A DNA stretch of 64,000 nt from assembly GCA_029261535.1 (NCBI GenBank), contig JAJDBF010000079.1:577-64576 (forward strand), read 5' to 3'. Position numbers and translations under genes: made by a program. Each line of letters starts with the position of its first letter. Positions within the stretch are counted from its first letter, which is position 1. The notes beneath the pieces were generated by a model, which worked only from the letters and a program-made list of their open reading frames with translations, ran no database searches and was not told where the DNA came from. The DNA comes from Nitrospinaceae bacterium. Its GTDB lineage: Bacteria; Nitrospinota; Nitrospinia; Nitrospinales; Nitrospinaceae. Shown piece by piece: positions 23,994 through 28,555 of this stretch.

Positions 23994-24046
23994 TTAAAAA
24001 ACGGCCGGACACCCTGAAATCATCAGGATGCCCGGCACTTTAAAAT
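23994..24046 (-). terminator. Rho-independent terminator after the TonB-dependent receptor
   Basis: On the minus strand, CCGGGCAUCCUGA / UCAGGGUGUCCGG (11 of 13 positions paired) is followed by CCGUUUUUU. Confidence 0.6.
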
Positions 24047-24051
24047 TCACG

Positions 24052-25899
24052 CTAATTAAAATGGAAATTCATGCCGACAAAACCAGACCTTGTTTGAGTG
24101 CCAAAGGGGACCGCCACTTCATAATCTTCGTCCCAGATGTTTTCAATGCGCAAAGTGAACTCCAGATTTTTCGCGGGACGCAGGGCCAGTGCAATTCTGC
24201 CAACACTGTTCCCCATAACCCTGTTTCGTGCAGGAAAGCTACTGAAAGCCGACCCGCGTGTGTGCACACCGAACAGTGCATCAAAGTTTTCCAATGGCGA
24301 CCAATGCAGATTGACCGTGTAAATGTTTTCCGGTCGCCTCGGCAACTGACTGCCAGTGTTAATGTCTTTAGTGTCGAGATAAGTGTGCGTCACACTGACG
24401 CGAAAATTATCGTGCAGTTGAAAACTGCCGGAAGTTTCAAATCCTTTGGCGGTAGCCCGGTCCACTTGAAAAGCGCCAAATATCCCATTTAAAAATTGAG
24501 CGACGATGAGGTTGTTGTAATCGATATCAAAGTAGGTGGTGTCGATCACGATGCGTCCGTCTAAAAACTCCTGGCGCAAGCCCACTTCCCAACTATCGGT
24601 ATCCTCGGGGACCAGGTTTGGGTTGCCAAAAAATGGGAAGAAGAGTTGATTGAAAGTTGGTGCGCGAAATGCGGTGGCGTAGGCTCCGCGAATTTTTGTG
24701 CCGTACTTGTTGAGCTTGTATGCACCCTCGAACTTGTAGGTCAGGGCATCGTTGTAAATGGAATTGATCGTTTGTCGAAAACCACCCGACAGAAACAAAC
24801 GGTCGTCATAATTGAAGTTGAGTTGGGTGTAGTAGCCTTGCGCATGGTTCTCGCCTTTTAGGCCATTTGAAAAGTTCTGACCGTTGGTGGTCTGGTGCTC
24901 GAATCCTGCCACAACCGAAAACATTTTATTGATCTGAAAGTTATTCTGAAAGTCTGCCGTATAAGACCGGCTGACAATCACGGAAGGAAATGCGCTTCGG
25001 GTGTTGATTTCATTTTGACCGTAATTCAGGTTGAGACGGGCGTGCCACCAGTCAGTGAGTTGTTTCTCTACTGGAACCGCGAGGTACCATTGATCCGTTT
25101 GACTGCTGGCGGTGCTGTCCGTCACAAAGAAGGCGTTGTCAAAATCGTTGGCGGATTGCGTGTAGCGACCGATGAAATCGATGCGTCCGTCATCCAGAAA
25201 GTTTTTACCTATGCGGGTAGACACCGTGGTGTTTTCATAGTCGTCATTTTCGAGGGCACCGCGATTTTTATTGACCGAAGAAAAACCCTCGGTATCGGTT
25301 CGGGATGCGGTGATCGAGTAATCGAGAATATCGAGATCACCCGCACTGCCCACTGTGACTTTGGTTGTTCCAAAGGTGCCACCTTCTACGCCGACAAAAT
25401 GTTCCGGCTTTTTTCCTGCGCCACTTTTGGTGACAATATTGATCACCCCGCCGACGGCATCCGATCCCCAAAGTGTGCTTTGTGCGCCGCGTAGAATTTC
25501 GATGCGCTCAATATTGTCAAGATTGAGTTCAGCGAAATTGAAGGCGCCCAGTGTCGTGGAGTTTACCTGAACTCCATCGATCATGACCAGGGTGGCATCG
25601 GAATTGGCACCGCGCATAAAAATGCTTGAGGTCGAACCGAAGGACCCTGCCTGTACGCCGGAGATTCCGACCTGTTCCGTGAGAAGTTCCAATACCTGAA
25701 AGTGATTTTTCTCACGAATCTCTTCCTGGGTGATGATCGTCATCGCGGTGGCTTCGCTGTTTTTGGCATTGGTTCGCGTTGCCAACACTTCAATTTCAGG
25801 CAAGGTGCCCTGACTTTCTGCGGCGGAAGCAGGGATCGCCTGATAGGTATCCGTGCAAAGTAAAGCAAGTATCAGGATGAAAAATTTGAAACGTGTCAT
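24052..25899 (-). CDS. btuB: TonB-dependent receptor, BtuB-like (cobalamin/corrinoid uptake)
   Basis: Signal peptide and a plug region (IEVLATR...SSIFMRGANSDATLVMIDGVQVN) very similar to the BtuB plug, plus a long beta-barrel. It is preceded by a cobalamin riboswitch. Confidence 0.8.
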   Translation of the reverse strand: MTRFKFFILILALLCTDTYQAIPASAAESQGTLPEIEVLATRTNAKNSEATAMTIITQEEIREKNHFQVLELLTEQVGISGVQAGSFGSTSSIFMRGANSDATLVMIDGVQVNSTTLGAFNFAELNLDNIERIEILRGAQSTLWGSDAVGGVINIVTKSGAGKKPEHFVGVEGGTFGTTKVTVGSAGDLDILDYSITASRTDTEGFSSVNKNRGALENDDYENTTVSTRIGKNFLDDGRIDFIGRYTQSANDFDNAFFVTDSTASSQTDQWYLAVPVEKQLTDWWHARLNLNYGQNEINTRSAFPSVIVSRSYTADFQNNFQINKMFSVVAGFEHQTTNGQNFSNGLKGENHAQGYYTQLNFNYDDRLFLSGGFRQTINSIYNDALTYKFEGAYKLNKYGTKIRGAYATAFRAPTFNQLFFPFFGNPNLVPEDTDSWEVGLRQEFLDGRIVIDTTYFDIDYNNLIVAQFLNGIFGAFQVDRATAKGFETSGSFQLHDNFRVSVTHTYLDTKDINTGSQLPRRPENIYTVNLHWSPLENFDALFGVHTRGSAFSSFPARNRVMGNSVGRIALALRPAKNLEFTLRIENIWDEDYEVAVPFGTQTRSGFVGMNFHFN

Positions 25900-25927
25900 G
25901 ATGAATCCTTTCCTCGAAGGAGAAGAT

Positions 25928-26070
25928 TCCGGGCAGGTTTCCTGACTTGGGGCGACCTACTGACCATGCCTTCCCATTTCAAATATCGAAACAGTGGCGT
26001 AACAGGTGTTCGTTCCCCTCACAGTTGCGGGACAGTGCCGGACTTTCACCGGACTTCGCTTGACCGGAAT
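25928..26070 (-). promoter_or_regulatory. Cobalamin riboswitch (proximal copy) in the btuB leader
   Basis: The minus strand reads GGUGAAAGUCCGGCACUGUCCCGCAACUGU (26021-26059 region), GCCACUGU (25991-25998), GGGAAGG (25969-25975) and the B12 box AGUCAGGAAACCUGCC (25931-25948). It ends about 30 nt before the btuB ATG. Confidence 0.85.
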
Positions 26071-26293
26071 GGTTTGATAAAAAACTGCTGGCGCAGGGCC
26101 AACAAAAAAACTGCTGGTTATTAAGCGTACCTCTTGGAAAAAAATAAACAGTAATCCATGCCATGCTCGGGAAAATCCATTGGAAGCACAGGCAGGGATG
26201 ATGGTTCTTTAATGGAGGCGGTGCTTTGGTCTGATGGGATGGTGTCTAACGGTCCTTCCACCGGAGGAGCTCCTGTCCAGCGAGAAGAAGGGC

Positions 26294-26321
26294 AAAATAA
26301 ACCACTCTTGGGGAGAGTGAG
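26294..26321 (-). terminator. Candidate intrinsic terminator (expression platform of the distal riboswitch)
   Basis: On the minus strand, a CACUCU / AGAGUG stem with a 5-nt loop is followed by GUUUAUUUU. The stem is short, so this is tentative. Confidence 0.35.
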
Positions 26322-26369
26322 TGCGTGACCCTTCACCTCTTGTTATCGAAGAGAATCGTGAAGCATAGT

Positions 26370-26610
26370 TTGGCGAGGCTTTCTGGCTTCCGGTTCGTCC
26401 CAAATCTGCGCCTTCCCGTTAAGAGCTTCTCTGAAAACTGTTTTTGGCCGCGAGCTGGCCCCAAGTTAGGGACTGCGAGTTGCCGGAACAGTCAATATTG
26501 AATTATCAGAGGTCTTGTTAAAACAGTGGCCTGTGCAGAGTTGGTCCCCGGTTACAGCGGCGGACCCACGACGGAATTGCACCGTCTTTCCTCACTTCCA
26601 AACAGCGAGC
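26370..26610 (-). promoter_or_regulatory. Cobalamin riboswitch (distal copy)
   Basis: The minus strand reads GGAAAGACGGUGCAAUUCCGUCGUGGGUCCGCCGCUGUAAC (26551-26595), GCCACUGU (26523-26530), GGGAAGG (26411-26417) and a B12-box-like GAAGCCAGAAAGCCUCGCC (26372-26390). A longer peripheral insert lies between the core and the box. Confidence 0.7.
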
Positions 26611-26626
26611 ATCAAAATTTCCATCA

Positions 26627-26655
26627 ATCCTAGGACCAAAATTTTGGAAAGTCAA
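26627..26655 (-). promoter_or_regulatory. Candidate sigma70-type promoter for the riboswitch leader
   Basis: On the minus strand, TTGACT, a 17-nt spacer, then TAGGAT. The spacer contains the perfect palindrome CCAAAATTTTGG (26636-26647). Confidence 0.25.
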
Positions 26656-26803
26656 ACGTTCAATAATAAATACACGAAAACAGGTGGGCAAAGCCGGGAG
26701 CCGTCCGGGGAATCCTGCTATATTGGAGGTGGAAGTCCGGCGGTAACTCGATGGTATCCAAGCGAGTCGAGCTTAAAGACCTGTAGGGCAAGAGACGCGT
26801 TTG

Positions 26804-27592
26804 CTACTTTGAAAACACTCGTTTGAAAAAAGCCAGCATGGCTTTCCAGGAACGTTCGTCCGCCTGTTTGTTGTAAGCCAAAGCGGCAAGGCCAAATTTT
26901 TTCTGGAATTCATCGGCCTGCGGGTTGGTGTAGCTGTGTTTTACTCCGGCCATGCTGACGTAAGTGAAATCAGCACCTGCTGTTGCCATGTCTTTTGAAA
27001 AAGAGCCGACCGCTTCCGGTTTAAGGAAGCCATCGTTGCCGCCATTTAGAACGAGAATCGCAGACTTGACGGCACCTTTTTTAACAGATGGCTCCAGGGG
27101 CAGGGCACTGTGAAAACCGACAACACCGATGAGGTCTGCGCCACCGCGTGCCATTCTGAGAGAGACCGCCCCGCCAAAACAAAATCCAATGGAGCCGATG
27201 CGTTCCGGGTCAACCGTCGTATGATTTTGCAGAATTTTTTTGGCCGCGTTGAATTTGGCTTGCGATCCTTCCCAGTCCTTAAACGCGGCGGTCATGAATT
27301 CACCTGCTTTTTTGGGATGATCGGCCAGTTTTCCCTCGCCATACATATCGAGCGCGAGAGCGGTGTACCCTGATTCCGCAAGTTTTATTGCGCGGTTGCG
27401 AGCGTGCTGGTTATGCCCCCACCACTCATGAACGACCAGAACCCCCGGACGCTTTCCATTGGCAGTGTTATAAGCCAGAAAGCCGGTGAGCCTGGTGCCG
27501 CCGACAGTGTATTGGATTTCCTCTGATTTAACCTCTGCCTGCGCAGGGGTGACAAGGGCGAACAGCAACAAAACAGCAAGCAAGTGTTTCAT
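26804..27592 (-). CDS. Secreted dienelactone hydrolase-family protein
   Basis: Signal peptide (LFALVTPAQA). PGVLVVHEWWG and GFCFGG (nucleophile elbow with Cys) are typical of DLH. Confidence 0.8.
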   Translation of the reverse strand: MKHLLAVLLLFALVTPAQAEVKSEEIQYTVGGTRLTGFLAYNTANGKRPGVLVVHEWWGHNQHARNRAIKLAESGYTALALDMYGEGKLADHPKKAGEFMTAAFKDWEGSQAKFNAAKKILQNHTTVDPERIGSIGFCFGGAVSLRMARGGADLIGVVGFHSALPLEPSVKKGAVKSAILVLNGGNDGFLKPEAVGSFSKDMATAGADFTYVSMAGVKHSYTNPQADEFQKKFGLAALAYNKQADERSWKAMLAFFKRVFSK

Positions 27593-27995
27593 GGGTGGAT
27601 CCTCAAAGGGGTTAGATGGAGATGGTTTATTGGCAGTTTTCGATTGAAAATATACGACATACCCTGATAAATATAGTCCCTTTCCTGCCCAAAAGAGGGC
27701 ACGGCAAAGGATTTCAGAGGCTTGAAAAAGGTCATTATAACATTCCAGGGGCCTGTGCCAAGTTGAGGAGAAAAACCAGAACGGGCAGTTCTCAAGTTTT
27801 TTGACTAAAAAAATGCTGATATTTTGAGAAATGGGGAATAAAACTCAAAGGAGAATGAAAAATAGCTTTTATTGAGATGTCCAATATGGTAACCTCAGTT
27901 AAATAAGATGGGTTGGCACAGGTCACGTGCGCTTTTCATCTGGATGTGCGCATCGCTTAAAGAAGAATGAAAAAGCAAAAGTATTTTGTTTTCAG

Positions 27996-28022
27996 CCATC
28001 CTTCAGCGGATGGTTTTTTTTT
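27996..28022 (+). terminator. Orphan terminator-like hairpin upstream of cspA
   Basis: CCATCC (27996-28001) / GGATGG (28008-28013) stem followed by a 9-nt T run. No annotated plus-strand gene ends here. Confidence 0.45.
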
Positions 28023-28133
28023 GGCTTGAACACCTTCATGAATTTGTGGCACAGCCGGTCTTTTTTTTTAAACTGGGAGACTTCCTTCAAAATCACTTGA
28101 GAAGTTGTCCCACAATTTTTATGGAGCATCAAA

Positions 28134-28334
28134 ATGCCAGTAGGAAAAGTTAAATGGTTTAACGAAAGCAAAGGGTACGGTTTTATTGAGTCTGAAGAAG
28201 GCGAAGATCTGTTTGTTCATTTCTCTGAAATTCAGGTTGACGGGTTCAAAACCCTGAGCGAAGGTCAGACCGTGGAGTTCGAAAAATCCATGGGGCAAAA
28301 AGGACCACAAGCATCCAAAGTGGTACCTCGTTAA
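28134..28334 (+). CDS. cspA: Cold-shock protein (CspA family)
   Basis: [15 protein letters not shown] (RNP1) and DLFVHFS (RNP2). 66 aa. Confidence 0.95.
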
Positions 28335-28354
28335 ACGATCAAATTGATCTCATT

Positions 28355-28391
28355 GCCGGCAGAGCTTCGGCTCTGTCGGCTTACTTTTTTT
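28355..28391 (+). terminator. Rho-independent terminator after cspA
   Basis: GCCGGCAGAGC / GCTCTGTCGGC stem with a TTCG loop, then TTACTTTTTTTT. Confidence 0.85.
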
Positions 28392-28555
28392 AAGGGCACA
28401 TCCAGGAACTACCTGCGGCTATCAGCACCCCTTACACTCTGAGTGTTTTCGTTGCTCTGTTTGTTTCTTTAAAGGGCGCGCTTGTCGCTGTTGCAGAAAT
28501 AATGAATGTTTAGAGACCCCCTTAAGGTTCCCGAATCTTTTCCGGAAGAGGCACT

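Follow-up and report, generated by a model that had tools for sequence, protein, structure and literature searches.

In Escherichia coli, the leader of btuB carries a riboswitch that controls translation through sequestration of the ribosome-binding site (RBS). Doublets of two adenosylcobalamin (AdoCbl) riboswitches, described as 'pseudo-cooperative', were first reported by Sudarsan et al. 2006, and 26 of them are listed in the survey of Sherlock et al. 2022 (PMC9481103). The same survey describes a 'bi-mechanism' class that combines one transcriptional and one translational switch, for example SAM-II/SAM-V, and left out pairs more than 300 nt apart as likely hiding an open reading frame (ORF). 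Here we analyze a pair of cobalamin riboswitches upstream of btuB, which encodes a TonB-dependent B12 receptor, in a 64,000-nt stretch of DNA from a marine, nitrite-oxidising Nitrospinaceae bacterium (assembly GCA_029261535.1, contig JAJDBF010000079.1, positions 577 to 64,576 of the forward strand), referred to throughout as the window and numbered from its first letter. At this locus a deletion of ~2.0 kb joined two genuine, anciently diverged riboswitches, and we consider it probable that they now control btuB in series.

As in the AdoCbl doublets and the bi-mechanism class, a single gene is preceded by two complete riboswitches that share a ligand but have separate expression platforms. The first is equipped with a terminator and the second with an RBS-occluding hairpin, and the gap of 271 nt between them falls below the 300-nt limit of the survey. 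Unlike the catalogued doublets, this pair is demonstrably the product of a deletion and is absent as a tandem from a sister species, and its spacer holds no intact gene, only a 46-codon pseudogene remnant that retains a Shine-Dalgarno (SD) sequence and a GTG start codon. The words 'duplication', 'deletion', 'gene loss' and 'pseudogene' are absent from the tandem-riboswitch surveys of 2022 (PMC9481103) and 2025. An earlier note on this DNA, written from the letters alone, had called such tandems uncommon, which is a fair description of a kind that was nonetheless known. The locus belongs to that kind, as an AdoCbl doublet that is transcriptional first and translational second, and it presents no new mechanism; its points of interest are a documented deletion origin and an aptamer that bears a repeat.

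The two riboswitches were identified with an Rfam covariance-model scan covering 24000-28500 of the window, for which the RF00174 gathering score is 31.5 bits. Both lie on the minus strand, the proximal one at 25915-26083 (86.3 bits, E 4.8e-21) and the distal one at 26355-26655 (62.9 bits, E 2.5e-14); in a whole-genome scan the distal match spans 26355-26617 with 59.7 bits. Two matches above threshold, with the signature motifs quoted in the earlier note present in both, bear out its initial call, and the B12 box and GCCACUG core of each aptamer align to RF00174 with high posterior probability. Only three RF00174 riboswitches exist in the genome (3.45 Mb, 84 contigs, ~95% complete), the third on another contig. 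The distal and proximal aptamers are ~75% identical over alignable columns, and the distal aptamer is nearer (83%) to the third, btuF-leading riboswitch than to its proximal neighbor. The pair are old, anciently diverged paralogues. Both aptamers lack P2 and carry GCCACUG and a P6 extension, features that we take to be the mark of the AdoCbl-type class. With the same class features in both, the earlier suggestion that they recognize different corrinoid forms gains no support. Minimum-free-energy folds of the whole leaders gave unremarkable z-scores (-0.2 to +0.55), and no weight was placed on them.

The origin of the pair emerges from comparison with Candidatus Nitronauta litoralis EB (G002), a member of the same genus in which the two aptamers are 2,250 nt apart as opposed to 271 nt in the window, a net loss of ~1,980 nt from the latter. 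The order of elements in that genome is a dienelactone hydrolase gene, a methyltransferase gene on the opposite strand, the distal riboswitch, an aminotransferase gene, cbiB, the proximal riboswitch, btuB and a THAP4-like gene. The cargo between the riboswitches consists of a 389-aa class I/II aminotransferase (cobD/cobC type, GTG start; Aminotran_1_2) and a 315-aa CbiB (CobD_Cbib). Alignment of the window to this locus is unbroken through the promoter, distal aptamer, terminator, SD, GTG and first 34 aminotransferase codons (VE..L.TI ... FPEHG in both). Past codon 34, the alignment jumps to the last bases of cbiB and then continues into the proximal aptamer. The promoter, the distal aptamer and the insert that it carries, the terminator, the SD, the proximal aptamer and btuB each have an orthologue in Ca. 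Nitronauta litoralis EB, and the window differs from that layout in having no cargo genes.

What remains of the cargo in the window is an ORF of 46 codons at 26121-26261 (minus strand) that starts with GTG at 26261, reads the first 34 aminotransferase codons and is then fused out of frame to the end of cbiB. It is preceded by an SD, AGGAG, at 26270-26274, and the deletion junction lies at ~26155-26165 in a CA(T/C)GG microhomology (CATGG in the window). The 71-aa GTG-initiated ORF noted earlier in the spacer (26336-26121) does exist, as an upstream in-frame extension of the remnant that begins at GTG 26261; none of the spacer ORFs in the window, that of 26121-26336 included, has a Pfam match. 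A whole-genome search of this ~95% complete genome found no CbiB anywhere, and the best aminotransferase match elsewhere in it is only 25% identical. The third riboswitch of the genome (98.8 bits; G000 contig C78:36183-45917) heads a cluster of btuF-btuD-btuC-cobQ-cobS and a cobU/nitroreductase (BluB-like) fusion; cobT lies further along. Because cbiB and the aminotransferase are absent, the CobQ product would seem to have no onward route.

A missing 2-kb segment in a draft of 84 contigs raises the concern that the segment is present in the organism and was dropped during assembly. The junction does not lie in a repeat, however, and a Logan contig from a separate assembly of run SRR15505516 is identical to it base for base, which makes an assembler artefact unlikely. 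The absence of CbiB from the whole genome and the further small changes in the remnant, beyond one clean breakpoint, also speak against this explanation, to which we assign a very small probability even though a contig break of the Logan assembly inside the proximal aptamer hints at a branch in the assembly graph. That break falls at window ~26013-26038, in a 26-nt overlap (GCACUGUCCCGCAACUGUGAGGGGAA) of the two contigs, and may stem from a second strain in the sample with the same conserved core. Metagenome contigs searched for an exact copy of the deletion junction gave no match, and a BtuB-based metagenome scan recovered only relatives of at most 48% identity, which are of no use for dating the deletion.

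Inspection of the wider order places the deletion in context. Rfam detects two RF00174 matches per locus in six relatives, and a DNA search of relatives finds the two riboswitches ~2.1 kb apart in Ca. Nitronauta litoralis EB and ~4.5 kb apart in a sister genus. The number of B12 genes enclosed by the two switches ranges from one to six across the order, being two in the sister species and two to four in other genera of the family. The cargo is btuF-btuD-btuC-cobQ in genus g2; cobS, cobU/bluB, aminotransferase and cbiB in genus g4; cobS and cobU/bluB followed by a CbiB fragment with a stop in genus g3; cobO alone in genome G095; and a 194-aa membrane protein in genome G031. From these gene orders, a leader riboswitch, B12 genes, an internal riboswitch and btuB form the standard layout of the lineage. 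The gene-bearing state is ancestral, since in genera g4 and g8 cbiB is likewise the gene immediately before the btuB riboswitch, and in g3 a pseudogene fragment occupies that place. Insertion of genes in Ca. Nitronauta litoralis EB, in place of a deletion in the window, was considered and rejected: the gene before the btuB riboswitch in other genera is cbiB, and the window keeps the start of the first gene. CbiB itself has an uneven distribution, occurring in 12 of 21 genomes of the family. In G004:C1:3206623-3206844 (L144), where cobU/bluB is followed by a CbiB fragment with an in-frame stop and then by the btuB riboswitch, the same decay is seen at an intermediate stage.

The doublet as such is real, as the earlier note had it. 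As a designed unit it fares less well, since relatives hold separate riboswitches with B12 genes between them and the spacer of the window is a deletion scar. The earlier note had also reasoned that a conserved gene between the elements would make them two separate single riboswitches. Such a gene is indeed found in relatives, and in the window it is now dead.

Structural features of the distal switch were resolved by alignment of orthologues. The distal aptamer, of leader type and P2-less, occupies ~26355-26612 (minus strand; RF00174 62.9 / 59.7 bits) and is supported by compensatory changes in P1 and in a P5-like helix. RNAalifold analysis of seven orthologues, which covered the distal switch, pairs GUUUGG (26603-26598) with CCAAAC (~26371-26366) to form P1, and this helix covaries to GUCUGG/CCAGAC in Ca. 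Nitronauta litoralis EB and to GUUCAGA/UCUGAAC in genus g2. The P5-like helix reads CUCUGC/GCAGA in the window versus UUUCGC/GUGAAA in Ca. Nitronauta litoralis EB, and double changes occur in 6 of the 35 consensus pairs of the switch. The distal element is thus foldable and its architecture intact, in line with the earlier call. The Rfam extension of the distal match to 26655 at its 5' end, with a '26-nt insertion' in P2, was rejected because P1 covaries at 26603, and the first 40-50 nt of the match belong to the promoter and not to the aptamer. This sigma-70-like promoter (26627-26655, minus strand), identified by a consensus scan and a seven-genome alignment, consists of TTGACT, 17 nt and TAGGAT, and its TTGAC and the T/A positions of the -10 element (TA..(n)T) are invariant in all seven genomes.

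Downstream of the distal aptamer, two further elements are conserved. A regulatory hairpin, GCUUCAC...CUCUU..AAGAG..GUGAAGG, occupies 26330-26365 (minus strand; conserved in orthologue alignment A3), and the GCUUCAC...GUGAAGG motif also follows the third riboswitch of the genome. It is succeeded by an intrinsic terminator at 26292-26320 (minus strand; pattern scan and fold), in which a 7-bp stem (26302-26320) is followed by UUUAUUUU. The terminator-like hairpin placed by the earlier note at 26294-26321 is therefore real, and a hairpin with a U-tract occupies this position in all seven aligned genomes. The fold energy is -8.6 kcal/mol in the window versus -9.2 kcal/mol with U8 in Ca. Nitronauta litoralis EB, and genus g2 has a stronger 8-bp stem. 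The AGAGGUGA segment of the regulatory hairpin could alternatively pair with UCACUCU of the 5' arm of the terminator, which would constitute an antiterminator.

The proximal aptamer is of the btuB type (25915-26083, minus strand; 86.3 bits) and is 93% identical to its orthologue in Ca. Nitronauta litoralis EB. Its expression platform is an anti-SD/SD hairpin at 25903-25929 (minus strand; fold -13.5 kcal/mol) in which the SD is paired. The btuB SD, GAGGAAAGGA at 25906-25915, lies 7 nt before the ATG at 25899, and the UCCUUCG...GAAAGGA motif of the hairpin is kept in seven genomes. A terminator pattern scan and the alignment reveal no U-tract terminator between the proximal aptamer and the btuB ATG. 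In these respects the proximal switch resembles the E. coli btuB leader: it stands directly before btuB, lacks an intrinsic terminator and has the SD paired in a hairpin. In contrast to the E. coli leader, the switch in this lineage is operon-internal and follows the stop codon of another gene, not a mapped promoter of its own.

Taken together, these elements suggest the following scheme. In the ancestor, a cobD/cobC-type aminotransferase gene and cbiB would have been the cargo of the distal leader riboswitch, upstream of an operon-internal btuB riboswitch. The conserved promoter (26655-26627) would initiate transcription. Binding of B12 to the distal aptamer would allow the terminator at 26302-26320 to form and the transcript would end there; without B12, RNA polymerase would cross the 46-codon remnant and the weak hairpins beyond it and enter the proximal aptamer. 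The latter, having no terminator, would hide the btuB SD once B12 is bound. The sole B12 outer-membrane receptor of a B12-auxotrophic lineage would then stand under two serial OFF switches, transcriptional first and translational second. A division of labor between distal termination and proximal RBS occlusion had been suggested in the earlier note; the conserved terminator and SD hairpin on which it depends are present. Our inferences from this arrangement are that the switches respond to the ligand, that they share a transcript, that the antiterminator pairs as described and that the dose response may be steeper.

Conservation of the distal unit after loss of its cargo was assessed against neutral change. 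Between the window and Ca. Nitronauta litoralis EB, identity at 4-fold sites of btuB is 41%, near saturation, and btuB overall is 77.5% identical. This compares with 87-88% for the distal aptamer, 89% for the distal expression platform and 93% for the proximal switch. With five outgroups to give polarity, lineage-specific changes at outgroup-conserved positions number 4 in the window versus 10 in Ca. Nitronauta litoralis EB. By these counts the cargo-less distal switch shows no decay, which implies either that the deletion is recent or that the switch is still useful. Two of the window-specific changes touch function, namely TTGACA to TTGACT in the -35 element and U to A at 26298 in the terminator U-tract.

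Whether both switches act on one transcript depends on where btuB transcription begins. A consensus scan finds no promoter-like site between 26494, within the distal aptamer, and btuB. The distance from the last stop codon to the start of the proximal aptamer in relatives is 3 nt (g2), 30 nt (Ca. Nitronauta litoralis EB) or 60 nt (g4), which leaves no intergenic room for a promoter, and the sole strong promoter-like site on that strand in G003 precedes the distal switch. Because no promoter-like site separates the distal aptamer from btuB, read-through from the distal promoter, and hence serial control, is favored. On this basis, serial action of both switches on one transcript seems somewhat more probable than not.

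Several points weigh against serial control as the outcome of the deletion. Promoters were sought by consensus matching, which is crude. At -8.6 kcal/mol the distal terminator is of modest strength, and its U-tract has A in place of U at 26298. The absence of decay would be expected after a recent neutral deletion no less than under selective retention. Within the genus, a single comparator genome carries the locus; a second (G001) lacks all of it at the DNA level. Finally, two small hairpins with U-runs, missed by the earlier note in its account of the spacer, lie on or next to the deletion scar at 26085-26117 (minus strand; pattern scan, fold -12.9 kcal/mol, z -3.1). These are weakly terminator-like and represent extra sequence relative to the alignment with Ca. 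Nitronauta litoralis EB, and they could stop read-through, which would imply an unrecognised promoter for the proximal unit.

These hairpins lead to a different explanation, under which the distal switch is an orphan that gates only the dead 46-codon ORF. Transcripts would stop at the distal terminator or at the hairpins of 26085-26117, and btuB would have an unrecognised promoter of its own and answer only to the proximal switch, with no cooperation between the two. Two separate units are the ancestral state, terminator-like hairpins do stand immediately upstream of the proximal aptamer, and a recent deletion would explain why the distal switch is intact. An internal promoter may also have existed, as Ca. 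Nitronauta litoralis EB has a promoter-like match inside the 3' end of cbiB (ATGACA, 16 nt, CATAAT, 10/12; L021 4991-5018), ~90 nt before the btuB riboswitch. In the window, however, the equivalent position belongs to the deleted segment, close to its 3' border, so the candidate is gone and no promoter-like site is left between the switches. The hairpin before the U-run, moreover, is short (4 bp, or 8 bp if two G-U pairs are counted), and two other genera keep an intact upstream switch (110-112 bits) beside decayed cargo. We therefore regard independent action of the two units as rather unlikely.

The latter genera were found in an order-wide scan of 102 genomes for close same-strand RF00174 pairs. 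In G046 (L088, G046:C321, 392-1222), the order is riboswitch, a 59-aa CobS stub, riboswitch and btuB, with 462 nt between the aptamers; the stub aligns to the N-terminus of CobS (E 3e-8), at 47% identity to the CobS N-terminus of this genome. In G024 (L143, G024:C1, 4431-5271), a riboswitch, a strong terminator, a pseudogene and a second riboswitch precede btuB, and 477 nt separate the aptamers. This pseudogene, with a stop at codon 17, is the remnant of a gene for a 194-aa membrane protein that is intact between two riboswitches in G031 (L089 1518-2102; 27/39 identical, E 4e-18). The protein has no Pfam family and may be an uncharacterised B12-related membrane protein. The upstream switches of both G024 and G046 are intact at 110-112 bits, that of G024 scoring 111.7 bits. 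Two further genomes, G070 (L086, G070:C37, 3951-4370 minus) and G071 (L087, G071:C71, 2332-2768), carry two btuB-type switches only 74-87 nt apart, each with an ACCUUCG..GAAAGGAC platform and with an 11-codon ORF (MTHKAVTASKR) after the first. This last arrangement reflects either duplication in tandem or complete collapse of a gene.

The collapsed pairs in other genera arose independently. Our tentative proposal is that same-class riboswitch doublets can arise through cargo loss and not duplication, as dispensable genes between a leader riboswitch and an internal riboswitch decay or vanish. Such collapse is seen at least three times in the order with different cargo, cobD-cbiB in the window, a CobS stub in G046 and a membrane-protein remnant in G024, and each time the upstream aptamer is intact. 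Under this proposal, the resulting doublet would persist because the upstream switch and promoter became a transcriptional gate of the downstream gene.

Recurrence of doublets before btuB in the order is also what would be expected of a purpose-built tandem sensor, in which the two aptamers differ in corrinoid form or affinity and were selected for a digital or two-input response. Old paralogues alike at only ~75% of alignable columns, with different expression platforms, would suit such a device. However, the tandem is not shared even by members of one genus, both aptamers have GCCACUG and the P6 extension and lack P2, and the spacer is a gene scar and not a conserved linker, all of which render a purpose-built sensor improbable. 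Our preferred explanation remains the joining of two previously separate switches by deletion.

The distal aptamer is unusual in a second respect. Its P6 terminal loop carries a repeat of ~93 nt resembling a miniature inverted-repeat transposable element (MITE) at ~26420-26523 (minus strand, edges uncertain by ~10 nt), as seen by orthologue alignment and genome BLAST. The insert is present in Ca. Nitronauta litoralis EB and absent from five of five outgroup orthologues, and these ~93 extra nt in the P6 loop account for the low score of the distal RF00174 match. BLAST finds ~49 matches to the insert family in the genome, 22 of them near full length (G000 contigs C2, C3, C11, C61, C68, C70-C72 and others), and copies also occur in other families of the order. 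An Rfam scan matched the repeat to no family. The consensus, ~100 nt in length, has imperfect inverted ends GGGnACCTCTAA / TTAGAGGTnCCC and an internal GCAGACC...GGTCTGC hairpin. TTAA-like bases flank many copies, and TTAAC flanks the copy in the riboswitch. The length of ~100 nt, imperfect inverted ends, internal hairpin and ~49 copies are all features shared with MITE and repetitive extragenic palindromic (REP)-type repeats in non-coding RNA. Unlike those, the copy described here resides within a riboswitch aptamer loop and has been retained since before two species split.

Identity of the insert between the window and Ca. Nitronauta litoralis EB is 67%, between the neutral level and the aptamer level. 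The insert is evidently tolerated, because the insert-bearing riboswitch still heads two intact genes in Ca. Nitronauta litoralis EB, and these comparisons suggest that the distal aptamer stayed under selection with the repeat in its loop. An aptamer may be able to accommodate a mobile element of ~93 nt in the P6 loop over long evolutionary time, a possibility that we put forward with the same reserve as the origin of doublets through cargo loss, with which it is joined.

The btuB gene (24052-25899, minus strand; Pfam Plug and TonB_dep_Rec_b-barrel) encodes a 615-aa protein that is 85% identical to its orthologue in Ca. Nitronauta litoralis EB and is the only BtuB-like product of the genome, other receptors being at most 28% identical. 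The upstream neighbor, a dienelactone hydrolase family gene (26804-27592, minus strand; Pfam DLH), forms a syntenic left border, with the same neighbor in Ca. Nitronauta litoralis EB. ORFs at 26209-26403, 25979-26164 and, on the plus strand, 26515-26826 have no Pfam match and were judged spurious. Further along, plus-strand positions 27971-28383 give a sub-threshold match to RF01766, the cspA thermoregulator in the 5' untranslated region (64 bits versus a gathering score of 78). The match precedes a cold-shock protein gene and is unexpected outside enterobacteria.

The locus offers a dated natural example of tandem riboswitch formation, with the 'before' state kept by a sister species. It likewise presents a cobalamin aptamer that carries a large foreign hairpin in a peripheral loop under what appears to be purifying selection. 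Both the deletion-born doublet and the insert-bearing aptamer lend themselves to direct tests by routine binding assays and in vitro transcription. In the ocean, nitrite is oxidised mainly by Nitrospinae, a group reported to be auxotrophic for B12 and to depend on btuB and btuCDF (PMC8026999). Given this dependence, the tightness with which the single B12 receptor is gated would bear on vitamin traffic in nitrifying communities.

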